A stretch of DNA of 35,440 nucleotides. Source: an uncultured bacterium. GTDB taxonomy: Bacteria > Patescibacteriota > Minisyncoccia > Phycocordibacterales > UBA9973. The translations under genes were made by a program, and so were the position numbers. The notes beneath the pieces were generated by a model. It was not told the origin of the DNA, did not search any database, and saw nothing but the letters and a program-made list of their open reading frames with translations. The stretch covers positions 1 to 35,440 of the forward strand of contig CAIOXR010000078.1 of NCBI GenBank assembly GCA_903862375.1, given 5' to 3'. Shown here piece by piece: positions 586 to 23,291 of the stretch. Position 1 is the first letter of the stretch, and every line of letters begins with the position of its first letter.

Positions 586-2226
586 ATGAATAATCAAACA
601 TTTATACAGAAAGTAAAATCATTTATCAGTAACCATAAAATTTGGAGTTTCATTATTCTACTGGTAATTATATTTTTAGTTTACCTCTTCTTTTTTAAGA
701 GTAAAACAACAACAGAAACTAAGTATGTATCTAGTGCTGTTTCTAAAGGGAATATCATAGTCTCAGTTTCAGGTACTGGACAGATAGAGTCAGCTGATAC
801 TATAAATATAAATGCTAAAGTTTCAGGTGATGTGATATCTGTGCCAGTAAAAGTAGGTCAAGAAGTAAAGAAAGGCACTCTTATTGCAAGTATGGATTCT
901 CGTGATGCTAGGATTGTTCTTGAGACTGCACAGCTATCATTAGATAAGATAAAGAAGTTAGACCCGCTTACAGTTCTTCAAAAGGAAAATTCTACAATAA
1001 AAACATATACAGACGGCTGGAATAATACATCTGCTTTTTTGATAGATATGAACGTAGTTGTCACAGGTATGTATGATATAAGTAATGGTTACTTAGGTTA
1101 TAAGAATAAAATGTTATTAAGTGAATCAGGCAAAATTAAACTAGATGCATCTGAAAAGGCTTATTGGGAAGCAAAGAAAAGTTTGGATACTACAACCTCA
1201 CTATATAAAACACTTTCTATAAATAGTTCAAAAGATGAGATAAAGAATCTTATAAGTAAAACTTTAGACACAGCAAAAGTTGTATCGAATGGAGTTAAGT
1301 TAACACAAGCAAGTCTTGATTATACTATCTACTCTCTAGATGCTACTTCCACTACAGATGCTACAAATAACCAGAAAAATTTGACATCATGGACTGCTAC
1401 TACGAATAATTATCTGAATAGTATAGCTACGAATTTAAATAATATAAATGAAAGTAGTCAGTCACTAAGTGATACTTTAGCTGGAGCAGATGAGCTTGAT
1501 ATTCGTCAAGCAGAACTTAACCTAGAGACTAAACAGAATAGTTATAATGATTATTTTATAAGAGCACCTTTCGATGGAATTATCGCTACTCTTACAGCAA
1601 AAGTTGGACAGACTGCAAGTGGAAGTATTGGAACATTAATTGCTAAACAAAAGATAGTAAAGATATCACTGAATGAAGTTGATATTGCTAAAATTAAACT
1701 AGGACAGAAAGCAACACTATCCTTTGATGCTATCGATGGTTTAACCATTACAGGGAAAGTCGATGGTATCGATTCTGTGGGGACAGTGAGTCAAGGAGTT
1801 GTCACTTATAATGTCACTATAGTTTTAGATGTGGATGATGCAAGAGTCAAGCCGGGTATGAGTGTCTCAGCTACTATTATTACTGATACAGCTCAGGACG
1901 TAGTCATAGTACCGAGTAGTGCTGTTAAAGAAAAAAATGGAGTAAGTTATGTAGAGACTTTAGGATTAGCAACTTCCACTGTGACAGATTCACAAGGTTT
2001 AGTCTCTACAGTAAAACCTATTTCTGTAAATATAACTGTCGGATTAGTGGATGACATGTCTTCAGAAATTATTTCAGGATTAAAAGAAGGAGATATAATA
2101 ATAACAAAGACTATTACTACTTCTACTTCAGCAAAAACAACTACAGCACCAAGTATTCTTGGAGCAGTAGGAGGGAATAAAGCAGGAGCAAGTAGTGGAG
2201 CGATGAGATCAGTAATGGGACACTAA
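586..2226 (+). CDS. HlyD/MacA-family membrane-fusion (periplasmic adaptor) protein with a long inserted coiled-coil/Ser-Thr-rich region
   Basis: It has an N-terminal TM helix, a lipoyl-like hairpin (GTGQIES...INAKVSGDVISVPVKVGQEVKKGTLIASMD ... IRAPFDGIIATLTAKVGQ) and a beta-barrel region. It sits immediately upstream of the ABC ATPase and FtsX permease. Confidence 0.8.
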   Translation: MNNQTFIQKVKSFISNHKIWSFIILLVIIFLVYLFFFKSKTTTETKYVSSAVSKGNIIVSVSGTGQIESADTININAKVSGDVISVPVKVGQEVKKGTLIASMDSRDARIVLETAQLSLDKIKKLDPLTVLQKENSTIKTYTDGWNNTSAFLIDMNVVVTGMYDISNGYLGYKNKMLLSESGKIKLDASEKAYWEAKKSLDTTTSLYKTLSINSSKDEIKNLISKTLDTAKVVSNGVKLTQASLDYTIYSLDATSTTDATNNQKNLTSWTATTNNYLNSIATNLNNINESSQSLSDTLAGADELDIRQAELNLETKQNSYNDYFIRAPFDGIIATLTAKVGQTASGSIGTLIAKQKIVKISLNEVDIAKIKLGQKATLSFDAIDGLTITGKVDGIDSVGTVSQGVVTYNVTIVLDVDDARVKPGMSVSATIITDTAQDVVIVPSSAVKEKNGVSYVETLGLATSTVTDSQGLVSTVKPISVNITVGLVDDMSSEIISGLKEGDIIITKTITTSTSAKTTTAPSILGAVGGNKAGASSGAMRSVMGH

Positions 2227-2229
2227 TTT

Positions 2230-2934
2230 ATGATTGAAATAAAAGATATAAGAAAATCATATAGGACTGATGCTGAACCTTTTGAAGCACTAAAAGGTGT
2301 AAGTTTTACTATTAAAGATGGAGAGTTTGTGGCGATTATGGGTCCATCTGGATCTGGTAAATCTACCTTAATGCATATTTTAGGAGCCTTAGATAGTCCG
2401 ACAAGCGGTACGTACTTTTTAGATGGTAAAGATGTATCAATACTTACAGACGATGAGCTTGCTGATATCAGAAAAGATAAGATAGGGTTTGTTTTTCAAT
2501 CTTTTAATTTACTTCCAAGAACAACTGTTTTAAGGAACGTAGTATTGCCTCTCATATATGATGGAGTAGGAGAGAAAGAAAGAATAGTTCGGGCCAAAGA
2601 AGCACTTATAGCAAGTGGACTAGACGAAGCACACTTTACTCATTTATCGAATCAACTTTCAGGTGGTCAGATACAGCGTGTAGCTATAGCCAGAGCTCTT
2701 GTGAATAATCCGACTCTTATACTTGCAGATGAACCGACTGGTAATCTTGATACTAAAACTGGGGAGATAGTGTTGGGTACTTTTCAGAAATTAAATAAAG
2801 AACAAGGAAGGACAATAGTTTTAATTACTCATGAGTATGATGTAGCACTACATGCTGATCGAATTATTACAATTCGTGATGGATTTATTATTAGTGATAA
2901 TAATTTACACGAAAAGAAAATAATAAATTTATGA
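2230..2934 (+). CDS. ABC transporter ATP-binding protein (MacB/LolD-like)
   Basis: Walker A is GPSGSGKST, the signature is LSGGQIQRVAIARAL, Walker B is LILADEPTGNLD, and the H-loop is ITHE. The stop overlaps the next start (ATGA). Confidence 0.93.
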   Translation: MIEIKDIRKSYRTDAEPFEALKGVSFTIKDGEFVAIMGPSGSGKSTLMHILGALDSPTSGTYFLDGKDVSILTDDELADIRKDKIGFVFQSFNLLPRTTVLRNVVLPLIYDGVGEKERIVRAKEALIASGLDEAHFTHLSNQLSGGQIQRVAIARALVNNPTLILADEPTGNLDTKTGEIVLGTFQKLNKEQGRTIVLITHEYDVALHADRIITIRDGFIISDNNLHEKKIINL

Positions 2935-4154
2935 AAACAAAAGATATTTTAGAAGAAACAATTATGGCTCTTTCAAGTAATAAAGTTCGATCAGGACTTA
3001 CTATGCTCGGTATTATTATCGGTATCGCTTCAGTTATTGCTATGACAGCTATCGGTACTGGTGCACAGAATTCTATCTCAGCATCTATTCAGTCTATCGG
3101 TTCAAATCTTATTATAGTTTCACCTGGGGCACCTCGTGGGGTTGGCCAGCAAGTCAGACAAGAGCGTGGTTCAGCCAAGACTCTCACTTTAGCAGATGTG
3201 GAAGCATTAAAGACAATTAGTGGAGTTAAGTCAGTTACAGCTGAAGTATCAAGTAGGTATCAAGTTACAGCAAAAGGTACGAATACAAATACAACTGTAG
3301 ATGGTGTAACTACTGATTATTCTATTGTTAGGAATTTAGAAATGGGTGAGGGGAATTTTATTACAGATCAGAATAATCAAAGTGGAGCAAAAGTAGCAGT
3401 CATAGGTCCGACAGTAGTTATAGATCTTTTTGGAGAAGGGGCTACAGATATAGTTGGCCAGTCAATAAAAATTAAAAGTATACAATTTAAAGTAATAGGA
3501 ATAACAAAAGCAAAAGGTGGTACAGGTTTTCAGAATCCAGATGATATGATTTACATTCCTTTAACTACAGCACAAAGATACTTCTCAGGTGATCAATATG
3601 TGAGTTCGATAAGTGTTGCAGCTACAAGTTCTGATGTCACGACACAAGTTCAGACTGATATTACTACAAAGCTTTTAGATCGTCATCATATATCTAATCC
3701 TACTCTTGCAGATTTTAATACCATGAATCAGGCAGATATTATTAAGACTGCTTCTTCGGTGACCGGGACATTCACAATGTTACTTTCAGCTATAGCAGGT
3801 ATCTCTCTTCTTGTAGGAGGAATAGGTATTATGAATATGATGCTTACTTCTGTCACAGAGAGAACTAAAGAGATAGGGTTAAGGAAAGCAATAGGTGCTA
3901 AAAGGAGAGATGTAAATATACAGTTTTTAGTCGAAGCTGTAATGCTTACATTTATCGGAGGTGTACTAGGTGTGATACTTGGTTGGGGAGTATCATTTGC
4001 TATAACCTCACTAGGAATACTAGAGGCACAAGTGTCTCTATCGTCAGTATTGTTAGCTTTTGGTGTGTCAGCATTTATAGGTATTGTTTTCGGTTATTAC
4101 CCAGCACAAAGAGCTTCAAAGTTAAATCCTATTGAAGCATTGAGATATGAGTAG
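2931..4154 (+). CDS. ABC transporter permease (MacB periplasmic core domain plus FtsX 4-TM type)
   Basis: An N-terminal TM helix is followed by a large extracytoplasmic domain and a C-terminal FtsX-like region (TERTKEIGLRKAIGAKRRDVNIQFLVEA...PAQRASKLNPIEALRYE). Confidence 0.9.
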   Translation: MKTKDILEETIMALSSNKVRSGLTMLGIIIGIASVIAMTAIGTGAQNSISASIQSIGSNLIIVSPGAPRGVGQQVRQERGSAKTLTLADVEALKTISGVKSVTAEVSSRYQVTAKGTNTNTTVDGVTTDYSIVRNLEMGEGNFITDQNNQSGAKVAVIGPTVVIDLFGEGATDIVGQSIKIKSIQFKVIGITKAKGGTGFQNPDDMIYIPLTTAQRYFSGDQYVSSISVAATSSDVTTQVQTDITTKLLDRHHISNPTLADFNTMNQADIIKTASSVTGTFTMLLSAIAGISLLVGGIGIMNMMLTSVTERTKEIGLRKAIGAKRRDVNIQFLVEAVMLTFIGGVLGVILGWGVSFAITSLGILEAQVSLSSVLLAFGVSAFIGIVFGYYPAQRASKLNPIEALRYE

Positions 4155-4155
4155 T

Positions 4156-4343
4156 TGGTTTGGTTTAAAATAGTTCTTCTCAGAGGGTCCGGATAAAATT
4201 AGGTGGAATTTCCTTCCCCTATTGTCTACTGCGTAAAGACAATTTGCTTCGCAACTGGATGAAAAGTAAAGAAGTTTACTTTTCATTACCCGTTCGTCGC
4301 CCTTGCGCACGCCTTTCTGATAAGACTATTTTAAACTCAACTG
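4156..4343 (+). ncRNA. Unclassified GC-rich structured element A. A long closing helix encloses several hairpins, and the 3' half is homologous to 19665-19766.
   Basis: A helix of about 30 bp pairs 4156-4184 with 4316-4343, with a perfect core TTTAAAATAG / CTATTTTAAA. Internal hairpins are 4201-4220, 4221-4243 (ATTGTCT..AGACAAT) and 4257-4290 (TGAAAAGTAA..TTACTTTTCA). The GC content is far above the flanking DNA. Strand is assumed from the flanking genes. Confidence 0.45.
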
Positions 4344-4370
4344 TTATTATTAAATTAAAATAAATATTAT

Positions 4371-4838
4371 ATGGAAAATAAAAAAGTAATTATGAGTGTA
4401 GTAGTTTGTGTTGTTATAGCAGTTCTTAGTTTTTTGGGGGGTATGAGTTACGGAAAAGGGAAGAATAATACTATATCAACTAGACAAGGATCATATAGTC
4501 AGAATGGATTCAATCAGGGTGGATATTTGAAAGGGGCACAAGGAATGCGTAGTGGTAGAAGTGGAGGAATGATGAATGGTGGTGGCTTTACCTCTGGAGA
4601 AATTATTTCAAAAGACGATAAGAGTATGACTATCAAACTTCGAGATGGAGGATCAAAGATAGTATTATTTGGAGCATCTGCAAAAGTAGAGAAGACAGTA
4701 GATGGTAGTATAGCAGATGTAAGTGTAGGTAAGTCTGTGATGGTTACAGGGACTACAAATTCAGATGGAAGCATAAGTGCTACATCTATACAAATGAGAC
4801 CCGCATTCCCAGCTATAGCTCCATCCAAAACAAATTAG
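4371..4838 (+). CDS. Small membrane-anchored/secreted protein with a Gly-rich linker and a C-terminal beta-rich domain (DUF5666-like). It is a paralog of the 65-583 product.
   Basis: The N-terminal TM helix VIMSVVVCVVIAVLSFLGGM is followed by a G-rich low-complexity segment. Then comes GEIISKDDKSMTIKLRDGGSKIVLF...VMVTGTTNSDGSISATSIQMRP, which aligns to the first ORF. Confidence 0.6.
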   Translation: MENKKVIMSVVVCVVIAVLSFLGGMSYGKGKNNTISTRQGSYSQNGFNQGGYLKGAQGMRSGRSGGMMNGGGFTSGEIISKDDKSMTIKLRDGGSKIVLFGASAKVEKTVDGSIADVSVGKSVMVTGTTNSDGSISATSIQMRPAFPAIAPSKTN

Positions 4839-4859
4839 GTTTAAATATAATAAATAATA

Positions 4860-4898
4860 ATCTAAAAATACATAGGCAAAGCCTATGTATTTTTAGAT
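4860..4898. terminator. Bidirectional intrinsic terminator hairpin between convergent genes
   Basis: A perfect 18-bp inverted repeat ATCTAAAAATACATAGGC / GCCTATGTATTTTTAGAT has a 3-nt loop and is flanked by A/T runs on both sides. Confidence 0.75.
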
Positions 4899-4900
4899 TA

Positions 4901-6547
4901 TTATTTAGTACACTCTTTGTCAGCTTGTATATTTAATAATCCGAAGAGTTTGACGCATACATTTCCGATATTTTTCTTATTTGCAAATACGTGGTCTTCA
5001 CCTTTGTATGTTGTAAGATTTACATTTTTATTTGCATCTTTTAATTTTCCATTTAAGAGAGTTGCTTGCCAGAGGGGGACGGTGCGATCAGCTTCTCCTT
5101 GGATTATTTCAATTCTTTGATTCTCTAAATTACTAATTTTATTTATTATTGAAGCTTGATCATAGAGACTTCTATTCGTATTATTGGGTAGACCATTAAA
5201 GTGAGTATTAAATATCGAAGTTTGCATTTTTACAAGCAAACTCTCCCAATCAGTAACTCCATTGATAGAGAATATTCCTTTGAAAGTATCAGGATATTCG
5301 ACTATAGACTTAAGGGACATATATCCTCCATAGCTATTCCCAGCTAAGTAAGTATCACTAATTTTGTATTGATTCTTCATATATTTAGTCGCTTCCATTA
5401 CGTCTTCTATATCTCCTTTACCTACTGACTCTTTTATGCTTTCAGAATATTTTCGCCCCACTCCAAAGCTTCCTCTGTAGTCTAGTTTTAAAACGATTAC
5501 ATTATTCTTCTGTAATAATTTTAACATTGCATCATACATACCATAACTGTGGTAGGGGTGGTAGCCTAAGCTTGTCTGCCTAAGGGGCCCTCCATGAAGC
5601 CAGATGACTAGTGGGTAAACTTTTGTTTTATCATAACTTAGTGGAGTCATCACCACTCCATTTGAAATACCGACTTTCAGAAATTCCTCATTCTTTATAT
5701 TTTTTTTTGTATTTATATTCGGTATTTTTAAATAGCTAATCTTTTTTGTTTTGGTATTGTATATTTCTGGACCATATCCTTTTTCTTGCTGAGATATAAA
5801 GAAAAGATAATTTCCTACTTTAGTAATTTTATCTACATATGAGACGTATGATTCAATTATTTTATCTTTTCCAGTTTTAAGATCAAGATGGTAAAGAGAC
5901 CATATGTAAGGGTTTTCTTTTGTATTTCCTACATAGTAAATATTTGAAGAATCAAAAAAAGTGAAAGTTGCAATATTAGTAGCTGTAGTTACTATTTTTA
6001 TATTTTCAAAACTATTATTTTTAAGATTGTCTGTATCAACTTTGTATATTGAAGTATTATTATCTTTATCATCTAGATATAGTAAAGTCTTTTCATCAGG
6101 GGAGAATTCAAAAACTTTACTATATTCATCTATTAGATCCCAGTATGATACACTTTCAGATATTTTATAATTTATGTTTTCTTTTATATTTTTTATTATG
6201 TAACTTCGTTTATTTTCGGGTTCTTTTGCACTTATATAATAAGCTAAGAATCTACTATTTTTAGACATTATTGCGTGATTACCATTTACTTCTTTTAATT
6301 CTTGTTTAATTAAATTTTTCAGTATTTGGTTATTTGGTTTGCCTATAGTTGTTTTCTTTGTGGAAGTACATTTTAAACTTGTAATATTACATATGTAATT
6401 ATTCTTTTTACCTATACCATAGTATTCTATGAGTACATCTGTATTTGTATATCCTTTGATATTTCCATATTGTATGTCTAAAGCTTGGGCTTTTGATGTA
6501 AAAGTAAAAATTATTATAAGTAAAAATATGTATTTGAGTTTAACCAT
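4901..6547 (-). CDS. S9-family serine peptidase (prolyl oligopeptidase / dipeptidyl-peptidase-like), secreted
   Basis: The C-terminal alpha/beta-hydrolase domain carries the nucleophile elbow GNSYGG plus downstream GEADRTVP and EDHVF (Asp/His candidates). The N-terminal half is beta-propeller-like. The start is placed at MVKLKYIFLLIIIFTFTSKAQA (signal peptide), because the tracked 5' extension to 6697 would overlap the divergent gene. Confidence 0.8.
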   Translation of the reverse strand: MVKLKYIFLLIIIFTFTSKAQALDIQYGNIKGYTNTDVLIEYYGIGKKNNYICNITSLKCTSTKKTTIGKPNNQILKNLIKQELKEVNGNHAIMSKNSRFLAYYISAKEPENKRSYIIKNIKENINYKISESVSYWDLIDEYSKVFEFSPDEKTLLYLDDKDNNTSIYKVDTDNLKNNSFENIKIVTTATNIATFTFFDSSNIYYVGNTKENPYIWSLYHLDLKTGKDKIIESYVSYVDKITKVGNYLFFISQQEKGYGPEIYNTKTKKISYLKIPNINTKKNIKNEEFLKVGISNGVVMTPLSYDKTKVYPLVIWLHGGPLRQTSLGYHPYHSYGMYDAMLKLLQKNNVIVLKLDYRGSFGVGRKYSESIKESVGKGDIEDVMEATKYMKNQYKISDTYLAGNSYGGYMSLKSIVEYPDTFKGIFSINGVTDWESLLVKMQTSIFNTHFNGLPNNTNRSLYDQASIINKISNLENQRIEIIQGEADRTVPLWQATLLNGKLKDANKNVNLTTYKGEDHVFANKKNIGNVCVKLFGLLNIQADKECTK

Positions 6548-15720: not shown

Positions 15721-17460
15721 ATGGAAAATAAAACTCCAAAATTCGATACAATTTTAGATAAAATGTTGGAATGTTTAGTACCTCATTATCGTGTTTGTAA
15801 ATGGAGTGGTTTACATCAATATTGTGAAGGTGAATTTAATATAACAAAAGAAGATATTGAATTTCTCAAAATACTTCGAGCTCCAGCTCCAAATTATTGT
15901 CCTACTTGTAGAAGGATGAATCGTCATGCTTTCGTAAATAATATCAATTTATATAAGAGAGTAAATAGTGCTCCAGGGAAGAATAATAATACAATATCTT
16001 TTGTCCCCCCAGTTTCTAAATTTATTGTTTACGATTTAGAAAGTTATAAAAATAATTTTGATCCATATCTTTACGGTACTTTTTATGATGAATCAAAAAG
16101 TTTTATTGATCAATTTTATGATTTAAGATTGAAAGTTCCACAACCTGCTATTATTCGAGATCCTTCAAATATAAATAGCGAATATTCTATAAATGGAAGA
16201 GATTTGAAGAATGGATACTATGTTAGCGGTGGGTGGAGGTCTGAAAATGTCTGGTACTCAAATTTAGTGACAGACTCTCGTAATGTTATGGATATTTACG
16301 CCTCACATTTTATAGAAAATTCATATGAATTAACTTCTTGTGAGAAATGTTATAACTGTCAGTATTCTTATTTTTCTGATAATTGTATTAATTCAATGTT
16401 TATGTATGATTGTAACAATTGCCAAGATTGTTTTGGGTGTGTAAATTTAAGAAATAAAAGTAATTGCATTTTTAATAATCAATATTCAAAAGAAGAATAT
16501 AAAGAGAGTATTCTTAAAATTAATTTAAATAGTAAAAAAGTATTATCTGACTTAAATGATAAATTTTGGAAATTTGTAAAAACACAACCAGTTCGAGCAG
16601 AAAGGCATGAAAGTGTGAATAATGTCTCAGGAGTAAATATTTCAAATTCAAGAAATTGCCATGATGTTATTGATTGTGTTAATACAGAACATGTACTACA
16701 TTGTGACCAAATAGTAGGGCATAGAGATTCTATGGATGCCTCAGTGACAGGCGGTTCAGAAAGATTATACAATACCATTGCAGTAGGCTCTAAATCATCA
16801 AATGTAAAATTTTCTTTTGCTTCGAAATTTATAACAGAATCAGAATTTGTAATTAATTGTAGGAATGTGAATAATTGTTTTGCTTGTATTGGATTAGAGA
16901 ATAAGAATTATTGTATTTTTAATAGACAATATGAAAAAGATGAATATTATAAAGAATTAGATAAAATTAAAACAAATTTATTAATAAATGGAGAATATGG
17001 AGATTTTTTACCTTTTAAGTTTAGCACATTTGCTTATAATGGTTCATTGGCAGATATATCATTTCCAATAGACAAAGAAGGTATTGAAAAAGTTAGTGCA
17101 ATATGGCAGCCAGAAACTGAAACAAACGCAATAGGAATGGAGATGATAGAACCAGAAAATATACCAGATACAATAGAAGAAGTTTCTGATGATATTTTAC
17201 AGAAGGCTCTTATCTGCGAAAAAACAAGAAGACCATTTAGAATAATTGAATCTGAACTTGAATTTTACAAAATTCATAATATTCCCTTACCAAGAGTTCA
17301 CCAAATAAAAAGAATTAAAGATAGATATAAATATGTAGGAAATCTTAAAGCTTATAGTAATAATTGTGAATTATGTAGTAAAAAAATTAATACTTTTTAT
17401 ATAAAAGAAGATGGATGGAAATTATATTGTGATGAATGTTACAAGAGAGAAGTTTTATAA
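15721..17460 (+). CDS. Cysteine-rich protein of unknown function. It is the more degenerate paralog (26 Cys) of the 17473-19143 product.
   Basis: It aligns end to end with the downstream gene. It contains two copies of the cap motif C-x2-C-[FI]-[GA]-C-[VI]-x-L-x-x-K-x-x-C-I-F-N-x-x-Y-x-K-[ED]-E-Y, and zinc-ribbon-like termini that have partly lost their CxxC pairs. Confidence 0.8.
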   Translation: MENKTPKFDTILDKMLECLVPHYRVCKWSGLHQYCEGEFNITKEDIEFLKILRAPAPNYCPTCRRMNRHAFVNNINLYKRVNSAPGKNNNTISFVPPVSKFIVYDLESYKNNFDPYLYGTFYDESKSFIDQFYDLRLKVPQPAIIRDPSNINSEYSINGRDLKNGYYVSGGWRSENVWYSNLVTDSRNVMDIYASHFIENSYELTSCEKCYNCQYSYFSDNCINSMFMYDCNNCQDCFGCVNLRNKSNCIFNNQYSKEEYKESILKINLNSKKVLSDLNDKFWKFVKTQPVRAERHESVNNVSGVNISNSRNCHDVIDCVNTEHVLHCDQIVGHRDSMDASVTGGSERLYNTIAVGSKSSNVKFSFASKFITESEFVINCRNVNNCFACIGLENKNYCIFNRQYEKDEYYKELDKIKTNLLINGEYGDFLPFKFSTFAYNGSLADISFPIDKEGIEKVSAIWQPETETNAIGMEMIEPENIPDTIEEVSDDILQKALICEKTRRPFRIIESELEFYKIHNIPLPRVHQIKRIKDRYKYVGNLKAYSNNCELCSKKINTFYIKEDGWKLYCDECYKREVL

Positions 17461-17472
17461 AATAAATAAATT

Positions 17473-19143
17473 ATGAATTCAGAAACAAAAAATTGTAAGA
17501 ATTGTAAAAAAGATTTCACAATAGAATCTGATGATTTTTCTTTTTATGAAAAGATTGGTGTTTGTGTTCCAAACATGTGTCCTTGTTGTAGAGCTCAGTC
17601 ACGATTAAGTTTTCGTAATGAAAGAACATTTTATAAAAGACCATGTGATAAATGTAAGAAAAGTGTTGTATCTATGTATTCACCCAATAAATCATTTACT
17701 GTTTATTGCTACGATTGCTGGTTTAATGACAATTGGGGAGGGGAGGATTTTGGATTAGATTATGATTATAAAATTCCTTTTTTTGAACAATTTGATAAAT
17801 TATGGAAAAAAGTGCCTAAAGTTTCACTTATTTATATGCGTAGTCCAGGAAGTGAATATACAAATATATCTGCCGATAACAAAGATTGCTACTATATTAT
17901 AGAATCATCAAACAATGAAAATTCAATACATTCATACTGGATTCAAGAGTGTAGAGATGTGATAGACACTTCTTTTGCATCCAAGTGTGAGCTTACATAT
18001 GAATCTGATGATTGTTACAATTCATACAAACTTTTATATAGTAAAGGTTGTCATGATTGTACTACGAGTTATTTTCTTGCTGATTGCAAAGGGTGCACAG
18101 ATTGTATTGGGTGTATTAATTTAAGAAATAAAAGTAATTATATTTTCAATGAATCATATTCAAAAAAAGATTATGAAGAGATTAAAAAAGACTTAAATCT
18201 TAATACTTATACTGGCATAAAAAATTTCAGAGAAAAATATGAAGAATTTTTAATAAAAAAACCTCGTAAATTTGCTGAAATAATACAAATTGTAAATTCA
18301 ACTGGTTCATATATGAAAAATGTTAAGAATTGCAAGTCGTGTTTCCATTGTTATGATGCAGAAGACAATAAGTATGGTGTTCATATTTGGAGAAATGCTA
18401 AAGACACTATGGATTGTGATACAGCAGGAAGGAATGTATCTTTAATATATAATTCGATAAATGCTGGAATTGATAATTCAAATCTGACCTGTGTTGCTTT
18501 GTGTTGGACTTGTTCATTTGTAGAGTATTCTATGTATTGTTTTAATTCCAATAATTGTTTTGGTTGTGTTGGATTAAGAAAAAAGAATTATTGTATTTTA
18601 AATAAACAATATGGAAAAGAAGAATATGAAAGAATCGTAAATAATATAAAGAATGAATTGAAAGAAAAAGGAGAGTATGGTAGTTTCTTTTCTAATAATT
18701 TATCATGTTTTGGATATAATGAGACTCCAGCCAATGAACAATTTCCACTTTCTAAAAAAGAAGCAATAGAGAGAAGTTTTAAATGGGAAGATACGGAAAG
18801 GGGAGTATATAATAAAGAAACGAAGAAGATAGAGGATATACCTGACAGAATAGAAGATATAGATTTTGAAGTTAGTAATGAGATATATGTCTGTGCGGAT
18901 TGTAATAAAAATTATAAGATTATAGTAGATGAATTCTCTTTTTATAAGAAGTTAGATATTCCTTTACCTCGCTTGTGTCCTGAATGTAGACATAATAGAA
19001 GGATGAAATCGCGTGGTCCGAACAAGCTTTGGCATAGGTCTTGTATGAAAGAAGGTTGTTCTAATGAATTTGAAACTTCGTATTCATCAGATCGACCAGA
19101 GATAGTTTACTGCGAACAATGTTATCAGAATGAAGTAGTATAA
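17473..19143 (+). CDS. Cysteine-rich protein of unknown function (40 Cys) with zinc-ribbon modules at both termini and an internally duplicated Cys-ladder core
   Basis: The N-terminal module is CKNCKKDFTIESDDFSFYEKIGVCVPNMCPCCR...RPCDKCKK...VYCYDCW. The C-terminal module is CADCNKNYKIIVDEFSFYKKLDIPLPRLCPECR...RSCMKEGC...VYCEQCY. The central repeats end in CKGCTDCIGCINLRNKSNYIFNESYSKKDY and CFNSNNCFGCVGLRKKNYCILNKQYGKEEY. Confidence 0.85.
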   Translation: MNSETKNCKNCKKDFTIESDDFSFYEKIGVCVPNMCPCCRAQSRLSFRNERTFYKRPCDKCKKSVVSMYSPNKSFTVYCYDCWFNDNWGGEDFGLDYDYKIPFFEQFDKLWKKVPKVSLIYMRSPGSEYTNISADNKDCYYIIESSNNENSIHSYWIQECRDVIDTSFASKCELTYESDDCYNSYKLLYSKGCHDCTTSYFLADCKGCTDCIGCINLRNKSNYIFNESYSKKDYEEIKKDLNLNTYTGIKNFREKYEEFLIKKPRKFAEIIQIVNSTGSYMKNVKNCKSCFHCYDAEDNKYGVHIWRNAKDTMDCDTAGRNVSLIYNSINAGIDNSNLTCVALCWTCSFVEYSMYCFNSNNCFGCVGLRKKNYCILNKQYGKEEYERIVNNIKNELKEKGEYGSFFSNNLSCFGYNETPANEQFPLSKKEAIERSFKWEDTERGVYNKETKKIEDIPDRIEDIDFEVSNEIYVCADCNKNYKIIVDEFSFYKKLDIPLPRLCPECRHNRRMKSRGPNKLWHRSCMKEGCSNEFETSYSSDRPEIVYCEQCYQNEVV

Positions 19144-19433: not shown

Positions 19434-19440
19434 CTAGGTA

Positions 19441-19653
19441 TACGAAGAAGGAGTCATCACTCCTGAGTATTGGGAAGAAATGTTTCGTAAATCCGCCTTC
19501 GCAGGAAGGCTACGGCGAGACAAAGTAGAACCCTTTAATGAGAAGTCCCGTGCAATTCAGCGGGTAAAAAATGAGGTGGTACCACGTGTTTCATCGGAAG
19601 CTCGTCCTTATATAGCAATTATTATAATTGTTGTATGTGGACGAGTTTTTTTT
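19441..19653 (+). promoter_or_regulatory. T-box riboswitch leader (putative Ile specifier) controlling ileS by transcription attenuation
   Basis: The T-box core is AAAAAUGAGGUGGUACCACG (19567-19586). An antiterminator can form from GAGG (19573-19576) paired to CCUU (19606-19609), a 7-nt bulge UGGUACC, and ACG/CGU. Its 3' strand is shared with the terminator 5' arm. A Stem-III-like hairpin is CCCG..CGGG (19547-19564). AUC-A sits at 19456-19459 in the apical loop of hairpin 19450-19463. Confidence 0.75.
19601..19653 (+). terminator. Intrinsic terminator of the T-box leader
   Basis: CTCGTCC (19601-19607) pairs with GGACGAG (19639-19645). The stem extends inward with A-U and G-U pairs and is followed by T8 (19646-19653). 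Confidence 0.8.
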
Positions 19654-19664
19654 GTTTATGTTAC

Positions 19665-19766
19665 ATAAAAATATTTTCGTTTCGCTAACGGATAAATTTC
19701 TACTGAAATTTTCCTCATTGCTCGGCTCGACAGCCTCCGCAGTGGCTCATCTGAAAATATTTTTAT
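19665..19766 (+). ncRNA. Unclassified structured element B, homologous to the 3' half of element A. It lies in the ileS 5' UTR downstream of the T-box terminator.
   Basis: A 14-bp closing helix is ATAAAAATATTTTC (19665-19678) / GAAAATATTTTTAT (19753-19766). The 74-nt GC-rich core contains hairpin GGAUAAAUUUC-UACU-GAAAUUUUCC and a GC hairpin. About 65 percent of positions align with 4244-4320. Confidence 0.45.
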
Positions 19767-19811
19767 TTTACCTTTATAAGTTTAATTATTATAAATATTT
19801 TAATAAAATAT

Positions 19812-22800
19812 ATGGAAGAAAAAAATCAAAAGTCAAATAGTGCATTAAGAGAAGAAGCTGTTTTAAAATTCTGGAAAGAGAATGATATTTTCGAAAAGAG
19901 TTTAAAGAAAGACGCACCAAAAGGTAAATATGTTTTTTATGATGGTCCTCCTTTTGCTACGGGTTTGCCTCATTATGGTCATATTCTTGGAAGTGCAGTA
20001 AAAGATGTTATCGGTAGGTATAAAACAATGAGTGGATATAATGTTCCTCGTCGTTGGGGTTGGGATTGTCATGGTTTACCTATTGAAAATATTGTTGAAA
20101 AAGATTTAGGTATTTCAGGAAAGAAAGCCATCGAAGCATTAGGGATAGATAAGTTTACAGAACACGCACGTAGTAAGGTTCTTACTTATGTCTCCGAATG
20201 GAAGAAGACTGTTGATCGTATGGGACGCTGGGTAGATTTTGATAACTCCTATAAGACTATGGATAATACTTTTATAGAAAGTGTCTGGTGGGCATTAGGT
20301 GAAATGAATAAAAAAGGTTTACTTTACGAAGGAGTAAGAGTATTAGCATATTGCCCTCGATGTGAGACACCAATAGCAAACTCAGAAATAGCTATGGATA
20401 ATAGTTATAAAGATATCACTGATATTTCTGTATATGTTAAATTTAAAATTTTAGATAAAAAATATAAAGATACTTATCTTCTGGCTTGGACTACGACCCC
20501 TTGGACACTTCCTGGTAATACTGCCATAGCTATAAATAAAGATTTAGTTTATATATTAGTGAAAAATATTACAGATAAAGGTGAAGAAGTGTATATAGTA
20601 TCAAAAGATTTATTTGAAAGTTTAAGAAGTAAATTTAATAATCCTGAAATTATTAAAGAAGTAAAAGGTGAAGATTTAATCGGTCTTTCTTATGAACCAA
20701 TTTTTTCTTATTATGAAAATGTTGAAATACCAAATAAAGAAAATATTTGGAAAGTTTGGCATGCTGATTTTGTGACAATGGAAAAAGGTACTGGTATTGC
20801 GCATGAGGCTCCTGCCTTTGGTGAAGATGACATGAATCTGGCAAAGATGAATAATATTCCTTTTATTCGTCATGTTGAACCAAATGGTGATTTCTCAAAA
20901 GAAGTTACTGATTTCCCAAATGTGAAAGCAAAACCCAAAGAAGATCATCAATCTACTGATATATTAATTATTAAATATTTGGCTGGTAGTGGACATCTTT
21001 TTGCCAAAGAAAAAATAATACACTCATATCCTCATTGTTACCGTTGTGAGACACCACTTTTGTATTATGCTCTTCCATCTTGGTTTATAAATATTCAAAA
21101 AGTAAAAAATGATTTAATTAAGAAGGGTGAAGATATGAATTGGATACCAGGACATTTAAAAGATGGGCGCTTTAAGCAAACTATGGAAAGTGCACCAGAT
21201 TGGACTATATCTCGTAATCGTTATTGGGCAAGTCCATTACCATTTTGGAAATCAAAAAGTGGCAAACTAATAGTTATAAGTTCACTAGAGGATCTAAAAT
21301 CAAAAATAAAGAAATCTGGAAATAAATATTTTGTAATGCGTCATGGAGAAGCAGAGTGTAATGTCAGTAAAGTTATTTTAGATGATGATCAAGCGAATAA
21401 TTGTAAACTTACAGAAAAAGGTAGGGAGCAAGTTAAAGATAGTTCTAAGAATTTTAAAGAAAAGATAGATATCATAATTGCTTCTCCTTTGGAAAGAACT
21501 AGAGAAACTACAAAAATTATTTGTGAAAATATTGGTTTTCCTTTAGATAAAGTTATATACAGTGACCTTGAAAAAGAATGGGATGTTAGCTCAAATTTTC
21601 AAGGTAAATCCAGAGAAGATTTTGAAGATTATTATTGTAGACAATATTTGAATCATCCATTTGAAGCATTACCAAATGGAGAGAGTTATTCTCAGCTTGT
21701 ATATCGTGTTGGTAAAATGATTTATGATATAGATAGTAAATATAATGGGAAAAATATTCTTTTAGTTGGGCATGCAGGTGAAACCAGTGCTCTTAATCAT
21801 GTGGTTCAAGGATTTTCTTTTGAGACATTAGCGAAAGATTTGCATTTTCCTTCATATTTAAAGAATGCTGAGATAAGAGAACTTGATTTTATTCCTTTAC
21901 CTCACAATCATAATTATGAACTTGATTTTCATCGTCCATATATTGACTCCATTATACTTGTAGATGATGAAGGGGAAGAATACAAAAGAATTTCTGAAGT
22001 TGTAGATTGTTGGTTTGAATCTGGGTCTATGCCTTTTGCTCAAAATCATTACCCATTTGAGTGTCCTAATTGGAAAGAAGAAAATTTTCCATCAGGTTTT
22101 GTTGCTGAGTATATAGCTCAAACTCGAACATGGTTTTACTATACACATACTATTTCTACTATTCTTTTTGGAGAAGCACCATTTGAGAATGTTGTGACGA
22201 CTGGAACTGTATTAGCAGAAGATGGGGCTAAGATGTCGAAATCTAAGAATAATTATCCTGATCCATGGTTATTATTTAATAAATATGGAGTTGATGCTCT
22301 TCGTTTTTATTTAGTATCTTCTACTCTTATGAAAGGAGAGGATGTTAATTTCTCTGAAAAGTTAGTACAAGAGGTCGCTAGTAAGATAATTAATCGTTTT
22401 GATAATGTAGTTTCTTTTTATGAATTATATAAAGGAGATTTTGATCCAGAAAGTGAACATGAAATATCAAAAAATGTTTTAGATATTTGGATCATATCAA
22501 GATTAAAACAATTTGTTTTAGAAGTAGAAGATGGTATGAAATCCTATGATTTAGCACAAGCGACAAAACCATTTGAATTGTTTATTGAAGATTTATCTAC
22601 ATGGTATTTGCGTAGATCTCGCGATAGATTAAAAGAAAATGATGCTGAATCTAAACAGACGCTATATTTTGTGTTAAAGGTAACAGTTCAGTTATTTGCT
22701 CCATTTATGCCATTTATTGCTGATGATATTTGGCAGAAAATCCGATTTGAATCGGATCCTGTAAGTGTTCATCTTACAGACTTTTTTGATGGAATTAAAA

Positions 22801-23291
22801 TAGATAGTATAGATACTAAAATAATAAATGAAATGCAAGAAGTTCGTGAGGTTGTTACTTTGGGTCTTCAAGCGAGACAAAAAGCAGGAATACCAGTAAG
22901 ACAGCCTTTGGGTGAGCTAGTAGTTACTAATTACAAGCTACCTAAAGAATACGAAGAGATAGTCAAAGATGAATTAAATATAAAAGAGATTAAGATATTA
23001 GATGGTGAAGAAAAGAAAGTAGAGATAGATACGGATATCACACCCGAGCTTCGTACAGAGGGTCAGTATAGAGAGCTTGTAAGAGCTATACAAGATATGA
23101 GGAAAAAAGCAGGACTTAACCCAAGTGATATTGTAAATATCATAATATCTACCTCTAAAGAAGGAGAAGGTCTAATAAATAAATTTAAGAATGAACTACT
23201 AAAAGCAGTAGGGTCAAATGAGATAAAAATAAAAGAGAATAATGGAACTGAGGTCAAGATTGATGATTTAATATTTGTCATAAGTATATAA
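19812..23291 (+). CDS. ileS: Isoleucine--tRNA ligase (type 2-like) carrying an inserted histidine-phosphatase domain
   Basis: It has HIGH as PHYGHILG, the CP1 editing motif TTTPWTLPGNTA, RNRYWASPLPFW, and KMSKS as AKMSKSKNN. At 1159 aa it includes an insert of about 195 aa, listed separately. Confidence 0.95.
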   Translation: MEEKNQKSNSALREEAVLKFWKENDIFEKSLKKDAPKGKYVFYDGPPFATGLPHYGHILGSAVKDVIGRYKTMSGYNVPRRWGWDCHGLPIENIVEKDLGISGKKAIEALGIDKFTEHARSKVLTYVSEWKKTVDRMGRWVDFDNSYKTMDNTFIESVWWALGEMNKKGLLYEGVRVLAYCPRCETPIANSEIAMDNSYKDITDISVYVKFKILDKKYKDTYLLAWTTTPWTLPGNTAIAINKDLVYILVKNITDKGEEVYIVSKDLFESLRSKFNNPEIIKEVKGEDLIGLSYEPIFSYYENVEIPNKENIWKVWHADFVTMEKGTGIAHEAPAFGEDDMNLAKMNNIPFIRHVEPNGDFSKEVTDFPNVKAKPKEDHQSTDILIIKYLAGSGHLFAKEKIIHSYPHCYRCETPLLYYALPSWFINIQKVKNDLIKKGEDMNWIPGHLKDGRFKQTMESAPDWTISRNRYWASPLPFWKSKSGKLIVISSLEDLKSKIKKSGNKYFVMRHGEAECNVSKVILDDDQANNCKLTEKGREQVKDSSKNFKEKIDIIIASPLERTRETTKIICENIGFPLDKVIYSDLEKEWDVSSNFQGKSREDFEDYYCRQYLNHPFEALPNGESYSQLVYRVGKMIYDIDSKYNGKNILLVGHAGETSALNHVVQGFSFETLAKDLHFPSYLKNAEIRELDFIPLPHNHNYELDFHRPYIDSIILVDDEGEEYKRISEVVDCWFESGSMPFAQNHYPFECPNWKEENFPSGFVAEYIAQTRTWFYYTHTISTILFGEAPFENVVTTGTVLAEDGAKMSKSKNNYPDPWLLFNKYGVDALRFYLVSSTLMKGEDVNFSEKLVQEVASKIINRFDNVVSFYELYKGDFDPESEHEISKNVLDIWIISRLKQFVLEVEDGMKSYDLAQATKPFELFIEDLSTWYLRRSRDRLKENDAESKQTLYFVLKVTVQLFAPFMPFIADDIWQKIRFESDPVSVHLTDFFDGIKIDSIDTKIINEMQEVREVVTLGLQARQKAGIPVRQPLGELVVTNYKLPKEYEEIVKDELNIKEIKILDGEEKKVEIDTDITPELRTEGQYRELVRAIQDMRKKAGLNPSDIVNIIISTSKEGEGLINKFKNELLKAVGSNEIKIKENNGTEVKIDDLIFVISI
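21324..21917 (+). other. Histidine phosphatase (phosphoglycerate-mutase-like) domain embedded in-frame within IleRS (about aa 505-702)
   Basis: KYFVMRHGEAECN carries the RHG catalytic motif. IIASPLERTRETT carries the second Arg region. ILLVGHAGETSAL carries the distal catalytic His. The domain is flanked by IleRS core segments: ...PFWKSKSGKLIVISSLEDLK on the left and ELDFHRPYID...VVDCWFESGSMP on the right. Confidence 0.8.

Follow-up and report, generated by a model that had tools for sequence, protein, structure and literature searches.

A strongly folding spacer in a patescibacterial operon: most likely a miniature mobile element rather than a gene-specific riboswitch or a relic of a T-box

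Imperfect palindromes of ~100–130 nt occur in the transcribed intergenic DNA of several bacterial groups, among them the ERIC/IRU repeats and other palindromes of enterobacteria, the pneumococcal BOX and RUP elements and the Rickettsia palindromic elements (RPEs). They vary in copy number between relatives and have stable predicted RNA folds, and in ERIC the stem is preserved from copy to copy through compensatory changes. The Correia elements of Neisseria (CREE/NEMIS) are non-coding, ~100–155 bp long, and combine terminal inverted repeats of ~26 bp with insertion at TA (PMC2649163, PMC10969869). Many of their copies are intergenic and often co-transcribed; in the transcript, the arms form a hairpin that RNase III binds or cuts and that alters the expression of neighbouring genes (PMC2649163, PMC10969869). 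Prokaryotic MITEs as a class are shorter than 500 bp, have inverted repeats of 4–30 bp, target AT-rich intergenic DNA and give stable hairpins in transcripts, and BOX elements have been noted for T-box-like motifs (PMC10969869).

The family described here is a previously undescribed one of this MITE/ERIC/Correia-like kind, and a literature search found no description of such repeats in Patescibacteria. It resembles the Correia elements in size, terminal inverted repeats, TA and intergenic copies, but shows no sequence kinship with them and belongs to another phylum. Its core consists of two conserved internal hairpins in a predicted three-way junction, whereas an IHF site, promoter creation and RNase III cleavage are, of the two, known for the Correia elements only. 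The family is like the ERIC, BOX, RUP and RPE repeats in the properties listed above but differs from them in sequence, fold and host clade, and its density in the DNA examined (~1 copy per 11 kb) is high for a genome whose size is probably below 1 Mb. Insertion within coding genes is frequent among RPEs, whereas the copies of this family are intergenic and no in-gene insertion was seen.

We analysed a stretch of 35,440 nt, the whole of which we call the window. Its MacB protein places it in Patescibacteria, with best matches in Nomurabacteria and Paceibacterota MAGs (86% and 85% identity). The MacB-type permease gene (2931–4154) and the gene for a small DUF5666 protein (4371–4838) are separated by a spacer of 216 nt that holds element A, whose closing helix takes in the last 2 nt of the MacB stop codon and stops 24 nt before the DUF5666 start. 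A sequence-only reading of this DNA had singled out the spacer as GC-rich and heavily self-complementary, and both properties are borne out. The GC content is 40% over 4156–4343 and 44% in the core of A, against a window mean of 31% and 15–27% in other spacers; the ileS T-box leader, at 42%, is the sole comparable spacer. The plus-strand fold of 4150–4350 has an MFE of -63.8 kcal/mol (z = -6.5), with none of 200 shuffles as good, and the minus-strand fold reaches -59.6 kcal/mol (z = -5.7).

Most helices proposed in that reading recur in the computed fold. The closing helix, put at about 30 bp, extends from 4153–4190 to 4312–4347, and the two pairs that were spot-checked have ensemble probabilities of 0.99 or more. 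The hairpin placed at 4201–4220 is seen at 4200–4221 with a pair probability of at least 0.99, and the one placed within 4257–4290 is present in the MFE structure as an AU hairpin. The GC hairpin GUCGC-CCUU-GCGCAC does appear at 4297–4311, but as only one of two alternative pairings. The AUUGUCU/AGACAAU hairpin (4221–4243) was not upheld: its ensemble probability is ~0.03, and forcing it costs 2.7 kcal/mol.

Element A is non-coding, in that it contains spurious ORFs only, and it is shorter than 500 bp, as in the prokaryotic MITE definition. A protein-coding reading was rejected: the minus-strand 62-aa ORF, already suspected to be spurious, is not called by gene callers in complete contigs. A search of 5.8 billion proteins with a 64-aa plus-frame translation of A gave no candidate homologue. 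No known RNA family accounts for the element either, in keeping with the earlier suggestion of novelty. Rfam 15 gives no match at the gathering threshold over the whole window; on 4000–4500 at E <= 10 it returns chance microRNA matches only, with the T-box model silent, and on copies A, C, D and E of the family described below it returns chance-level matches only. ARAGORN found no tRNA or tmRNA genes. The rod-like shape suggested 6S, SRP or Y RNA, none of which is supported by a model match. A scan detected neither a plus-strand promoter-like site nor a terminator-like site in or at element A, and the sole terminator in the scan is that of the operon, a 20-bp hairpin at 4857–4901. The proposal of a small RNA gene thus found no backing at A, although the scan is still compatible with one.

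The claim that the 3′ half of A is homologous to a second element in the ileS leader (19676–19755, here copy B) could not be settled on the pair itself. Comparison by blastn gives no match. The best permissive Smith–Waterman local alignment does fall at 19634–19779, yet 30 of 100 shuffled queries score equally, and a covariance model built from A alone, using its 3′ half (CM R1), scores B at only 8.6 bits, at rank 20. This model did match a third copy, C, at L181 5518–5570 (26 bits, E = 0.002 over 579 kb). L181 belongs to the readable DNA of the source genome, 54.5 kb that include the JGI contig Ga0114951_10000135 (read as L181 and L169). Copy C is approximately identical to B over ~36 nt (GGATAAATTTCTnCTGAAATTTTCCTCATTGCTCGG) and exactly identical to A over two stretches of 19 and 13 nt (GGGTCCGGATAAA and CGTCGCCCTTGCGCACGCC), the second of which lies in the second partial unit of A. 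A model built from A, B and C (CM R2) then identifies five copies in the 54.5 kb, all of them intergenic and all except E on the plus strand (Table 1). Because C bridges the two copies where the pairwise tests failed, the homology of A and B is established through the family, and the earlier claim stands. Note that pairwise statistics rejected a true homology here, between copies only 46% identical, and that an intermediate copy was needed.

A sixth copy, F, is found in a distant patescibacterial genome. Searches by nhmmer with a six-copy profile confirm all copies (A, E = 1e-9; B, E = 8e-21) and give nothing significant against 82 other Patescibacteria loci. Pairwise identity among the copies is 39–74%, and copy B also folds strongly (z = -5.65). 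No repeated 20- to 30-mer overlapping 4140–4360 is present in the 54.5 kb. In viral contigs, the exact pattern from the arms of A has no match, the core pattern of A has 78 chance matches and the hairpin pattern and family pattern have none. In JGI metagenomes the arm pattern gives six chance coding matches and no further copies, in a scan that missed A itself, the genome being apparently outside the scanned set.

Table 1. Copies of the repeat family and features of element A. Positions are those of the window unless a contig or locus is named; L181 position = window position + 9415, and copies C, D and E sit 0.5–3.9 kb upstream of window position 1.
Feature	Position	Strand	Support	Location or description
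Copy A	4166–4333	+	CM R2 63.2 bits, E = 1.7e-10	MacB-to-DUF5666 spacer
Copy B, standard length	19660–19771	+	CM R2 102.3 bits, E = 1.3e-18	ileS 5′ UTR between T-box terminator (end near 19652) and start codon (19812)
Copy C	L181 5470–5583	+	CM R2 123 bits	between G6PD and cupin genes
Copy D	L181 8590–8702	+	CM R2 102 bits	between sigma-factor gene and 133-aa gene
Copy E	L181 8767–8879	-	CM R2 58 bits	64 nt from D, same spacer
Copy F (sixth)	L055, distant Patescibacteria MAG, MacB only 65% identical		45 bits, E ~1e-6 to 8e-6	between convergent genes
Element A, whole foldback	4153–4347	+		enlarged family copy with ~12 nt of complementary flank per side
Left flanking TA (4166–4167) and left terminal inverted repeat AAATAGTTCTTCTCAGAGGG..	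4166–4190	+	same arm in D and E (AAATAGCTCTTCTCAAAGAG)	pairs with 4312–4333
First partial unit of A	4166–4217	+	nhmmer six-copy profile, model 7–58, E = 5.7e-6	left arm, GGAUAAA motif, hairpin
Second partial unit of A	4243–4333	+	nhmmer six-copy profile, model 17–107, E = 1.3e-9	inner left-arm remnant, GGAUGAA, enlarged H1, CAUUAC junction, GC hairpin, right arm
Enlarged AU-rich hairpin, H1 of unit 2	4257–4290	+		12-bp stem plus two further closing G-C pairs in MFE
GC hairpin GUCGC-CCUU-GCGCAC, in H2 region	4297–4311	+	sequence common to C and D	
Right arm, terminal inverted repeat ..CCTTTCTGATAAGACTATTT, with its flanking TA (4332–4333)	4312–4333	+	matches right arm of D (CTCTTTGATAAGACTATTT)	3′ strand of closing helix

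The family unit is ~112 nt long and comprises a closing helix of ~20 bp, formed by the terminal inverted repeats, and two internal hairpins, H1 and H2. Its order is 5′ arm, UCC, H1 (GGAUAAAUUUC-loop-GAAAUUUUCC), junction UCAUUGCUC, GC hairpin H2, junction UUGCGCACGC and 3′ arm, and it is predicted to fold as a three-way junction of the closing helix, H1 and H2. Copies A, D and E have arms of ~20 nt in common, with the left arm AAATAG(C/T)TCTTCTCA.AG.G, the right arm C.TT.TGATAAGACTATTT and the same left/right asymmetry. The arms of B and C are paired but unlike these in sequence. A solo left arm is present between D and E. Immediately outside both arms is TA in A, B, D and E, whereas C has TT and TA; this flanking TA is palindromic, common in DNA of 31% GC and inseparable from a 2-nt extension of the palindrome, and at the empty sites of relatives divergence precludes an alignment.

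Element A departs from the standard unit in length (164–195 nt, against 112–114 nt) and in organization. The profile matches it twice, with model positions 17–58 duplicated, and A is a partial dimer, in which two incomplete units follow each other head to tail with ~25 nt between them. Its second H1 is enlarged and rewritten, unlike the H1 of B, C or D in sequence, and has retained its pairing. The sequence-only reading had remarked that the AU-rich hairpin differs between A and B and still pairs, and comparison of the copies identifies this as genuine compensatory change; the U-A to A-U flip that it described in the GC hairpin also holds when the copies are compared by hand. In A the canonical pairing of H2, GGGC/GCCC in C, no longer forms, which leaves the GC hairpin at 4297–4311 as the only option for the H2 region.

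Two questions bear on how these copies came to be where they are: (i) whether the orthologous sites of relatives contain them and (ii) what lies beside them. For the first question, the gene order HlyD-like, ABC ATPase, MacB permease and DUF5666 is found in ~60 of 80 related loci, and the MacB-to-DUF5666 spacer is mostly 10–50 nt. Searches for A by blastn and nhmmer in the 80 related loci give no match. In the nearest relative with the small gene (L002), the spacer is 48 nt long and the element is absent. Removal of A together with one TA from the spacer described here leaves 50 nt, within the usual range. A second relative (L191), syntenic over 20 kb from G6PD to ThyA/SHMT, is without A, C, D and E; it has unrelated sequence at the spacer of A, and its sigma-factor spacer is 46 nt, as opposed to 403 nt here, and aligns with the sequence just downstream of E. 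A further 21 kb of a Nomurabacteria genome (L190; IleS 73% identical) contain no copy, which brings the DNA covered in these two closer relatives to 41 kb. For copy B, the informative relative is L178 (IleS 79% identical), where promoter, T-box and terminator are kept at ~80% identity and unrelated sequence occupies the place of B. These comparisons identify element A as a lineage-specific insertion in a normally tight operon junction, and copy B as an insertion downstream of the ileS T-box terminator.

As to the second question, the neighbours of the copies include the DUF5666 gene, ileS, a cupin gene and the gene for a 133-aa protein; one copy is antisense, and the L055 copy lies between convergent genes. 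The proposal of a locus-specific cis-regulatory RNA is contradicted by these observations, as A is missing from the corresponding spacers of L002 and L191 and its relatives in the family stand beside unrelated genes, one of them in opposite orientation.

Same-species contigs from several samples have A unchanged, and one contig has a single SNP (T4214G). Three Logan contigs start at 4260–4262 and one ends at 4287, either side of the enlarged hairpin of A. On the ENA contig ERZ1426818, HlyD-ABC-MacB is followed by ~209 nt and then by recA instead of the DUF5666 gene. Both this order and the breaks in the Logan contigs would be accounted for if recA had an A-like copy upstream of it. As a separate observation, unrelated long hairpins are present in the same spacer of a minority of other lineages (L006, L012, L019, L041, L050 and L038).

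The ileS leader (19436–19612) is a genuine T-box, though its score is low (32 bits, E = 1.6e-5), and the sequence-only reading had seen in A both a resemblance to its core and colinearity with its locus. There are points of likeness. A and the T-box (RF00230) have the 12-mer AAUnAGGUGGnA in common, both are GC-enriched structured RNA in the window, and copy B is located in the T-box leader itself. The 12-mer is present as described (AATNAGGTGGNA, at 4197–4208 and 19570–19581), but the pattern was set after seeing both sites, and the T-box covariance model is silent on A at E <= 10. The 12-mer is part of the GGAUAAA-H1 motif in the first unit of A, a conserved motif of the repeat family and not of the T-box, and its resemblance to the T-box core is coincidental. 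The colinearity does not hold, as 4191–4208 aligns to 19691–19708 in copy B and not to the T-box at 19562–19581. Element A also has no specifier loop and no antiterminator/terminator pair, and no Stem I, as had been recognized; likewise its downstream gene, the DUF5666 gene, is not an aminoacyl-tRNA synthetase gene and is unrelated to amino-acid metabolism. A decayed copy of the ileS leader is therefore not a suitable description of A, because B is itself an insertion, being missing from the leader of L178, and A has no T-box signal.

Together these results make it most likely that element A is a miniature mobile element. A is a copy of a dispersed, non-coding family of imperfect palindromes (~112 nt) of MITE/ERIC/Correia-like type in a Paceibacteria/Nomurabacteria-like host, and we consider it probable that the family spread in trans into TA sites and that A is co-transcribed in the operon. 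The traits of the family match the published description of prokaryotic MITEs (PMC10969869), and this match counts for the MITE reading. Terminal inverted repeats within the range of ~4–30 bp are present as the arms of A, D and E; dispersed copies in AT-rich intergenic DNA number five plus one solo arm, in either orientation; and orthologous sites are empty in L002 (for A), L178 (for B) and L191 (for A, C and D/E). In this model, the family would have spread by transposition into TA sites through a transposase acting in trans, itself not seen: the Pfam-annotated called genes of the 54.5 kb include no transposase or parent IS with these ends (family end sequence AAATAGCTCTTCTCA). A would have inserted in the short spacer of the conserved HlyD-ABC-MacB-DUF5666 operon and would be co-transcribed with it. 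By analogy with the Correia elements, the arms of A may form a ~30 bp helix in the mRNA that loops the insert out, possibly as a stability element or an RNase III target at the junction of the two cistrons. A local inverted duplication of the spacer by template switching, suggested by a faint match to the L002 spacer, was dropped once the family had been found.

The copies are old, yet most of their helical positions are still paired. In a fold-fitted alignment of the six sequences, 89% of pair cells are paired and double changes occur at 23 of 33 pairs, a result that none of 500 shuffles reaches; when the structure is slid by 1–3 columns, the paired cells drop to 47–55%. In a plain MAFFT alignment restricted to H1 and H2, 88.5% of cells are paired and the covariation score is 0.45, compared to 0.25 for shuffles, with 1 of 500 as high. 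The covariation comes from six sequences only, and the model itself guided the main alignment. In copy F every helix is rewritten and perfectly paired, and UAAA, CUCG and CG.C..CU are fixed. Hairpins that are still paired in copies of 39–74% identity are not expected of a purely neutral, decaying MITE. We infer that the fold is under selection and that compensatory change keeps the hairpins because the fold matters, for mobility or for host tolerance.

One reading of this conservation is that the motif is a structured RNA selected by the host and needed at many transcripts, for instance as a small ribozyme, as a platform for protein binding or as a processing and stability signal between cistrons or in UTRs. 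The covarying helices and the conserved junctions, which extend to a second, distant genome, speak for it, as do the raised GC content, as in the T-box, and the sense orientation of four of the five copies in this genome relative to flanking genes. However, G-U pairs are not in excess over A-C in the helices (9 versus 6), so that nothing indicates selection on one RNA strand. A transposase that recognizes a folded DNA strand or both ends would fit equally well, and so would host tolerance. Copy E is antisense and only 64 nt from D, F lies between convergent genes, the flanking genes are functionally unrelated and the same spacers in syntenic relatives function without the element. Moreover, A itself is a scrambled dimer with a broken canonical H2. 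We therefore regard a host-selected RNA motif as unlikely.

Mobility and RNA function could also be combined. If the three-way-junction fold, and not the DNA ends, were under selection, the family might represent a Patescibacteria-specific class of mobile structured RNA, self-processing or protein-recruiting, that rides operon transcripts and is partly domesticated as an intercistronic control element. Such a class would explain why helices covary at 39–74% identity, why junction nucleotides are kept in a second distant genome and why ~1 copy per 11 kb is found in a minimal genome; we think it quite unlikely to be the case.

A third reading, which we judge distinctly improbable, has the family as a single-strand DNA repeat recognized through its hairpins, either a REP/BIME type mobilized via RAYT or a PATE derived from IS200/IS605, with the internal hairpins as the target of the enzyme. 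Structure conserved over sequence without RNA strand bias would be natural for such repeats, and the clustered, inverted D/E pair beside a solo arm is BIME-like. The unit, with ~112 nt and three helices, is nevertheless far larger than a REP hairpin (20–40 nt), a conserved 5′ GTAG-like tetranucleotide is not seen, and a Y1/HUH transposase or TnpB is absent among the called genes of the 54.5 kb. The view of the sequence-only reading, either a locus-specific cis-regulatory RNA or small RNA of the DUF5666 gene or a decayed duplicate of the T-box leader of ileS, draws on the strong fold, the 12-mer common with the T-box core and a position 24 nt upstream of the DUF5666 start, but is very improbable indeed, since relatives have spacers of 10–50 nt with no element, B is absent where the T-box is conserved, no promoter or terminator was detected, the T-box model is silent on A, the 12-mer sits in a family motif found in B as well (19691–19708), and the additional copies by unrelated genes and the empty orthologous sites contradict it.

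The identification of A as a probable miniature mobile element carries a warning. GC-rich, strongly folding spacers in AT-rich genomes are the standard signature by which riboswitches are nominated, and dispersed palindromic repeats mimic this signature, covariation included. Should selection on the fold prove to act on the RNA, an uncultured phylum would have yielded, in this family, a new structured RNA that is tractable. Genomes of Patescibacteria are small and streamlined, and mobile DNA is usually described as scarce in them. The presence of a repeat at ~1 copy per 11 kb, with copies in operons and in a T-box-regulated 5′ UTR, bears on how selfish DNA is tolerated, and perhaps used, by these organisms.

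The HlyD-like, ABC ATPase, MacB permease and small DUF5666 protein genes stand in this order at window 586-4838 and in about 60 related loci. This four-gene order is widely conserved across Patescibacteria, which suggests that the DUF5666 protein belongs to the efflux or export system formed with the HlyD-like protein, ABC ATPase and MacB. Several other Patescibacteria (L006, L012, L019, L038, L041 and L050) carry long hairpins or foldbacks in the MacB-to-DUF5666 spacer (z -4.4 to -10) that are unrelated to element A, the enlarged repeat copy occupying this spacer in the window. In L006 the hairpin is perfect and about 26 bp long; in L019 a 27-bp closing helix surrounds about 90 nt. The presence of unrelated foldbacks at the same junction in several Patescibacteria points to their repeated and independent acquisition there. 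The site 3′ of the T-box terminator in the ileS leader also appears to be a recurrent target of foldback inserts.

Further copies of the repeat family lie upstream of the window on L181, DNA from the same genome. Copies D and E, together with a solo left arm, take up a spacer that measures 403 nt here and 46 nt in the syntenic relative L191. This arrangement resembles a hot spot for insertion or a cluster of the BIME type.

Logan contigs end or start on either side of the enlarged hairpin of A (window 4260-4287), and in one assembly (ENA contig ERZ1426818) MacB and about 209 nt are followed by recA where the DUF5666 gene stands in the window. Taken together, the breaks and the recA join suggest either that another A-like copy precedes recA or that the region is rearranged in a strain. 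Window position 1 or 13 is where several independent assemblies begin (L182, L185 and two ENA contigs), which hints at a further repeat, or a point that varies between strains, immediately upstream.

Coordinates of additional features in and near the window
Feature	Position	Location
Hairpin, 30 nt, 97% complementary	window 4848-4910	between convergent DUF5666 and S9 peptidase genes
Two neighbouring paralogous genes (579 and 556 aa)	window 15721-19143	
ileS leader: T-box and long terminator hairpin	window 19436-19652	
ileS gene (IleS, 1159 aa)	window 19812-23291	
D and E (opposite orientations) and solo left arm	L181 8564-8966	upstream of the window, 0.45-0.85 kb from its start

The hairpin downstream of the DUF5666 gene reads as a putative terminator on both strands. 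The two paralogues have no match in Pfam, and each gene contains internal repeats spaced by about 450 nt (repeat families D1 and D2). A histidine-phosphatase domain (PF00300) is inserted within the IleS synthetase at residues 507-675, a combination also found in many Paceibacteria IleS homologues according to precomputed Pfam hits.

In L178, a relative with 79% identical IleS, the place of copy B in the ileS leader (L178 1395-1450) holds a different GC-rich segment, which lies between runs of A and T that are complementary to each other (AAAAAAAGTC...GACATTTTTTT). The ileS-leader T-box of the window scores 32 bits, far under the Rfam gathering score of 93, yet it is conserved, being about 80% identical to its L178 counterpart, promoter included. 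Divergent T-boxes of Patescibacteria may be worth a closer look.
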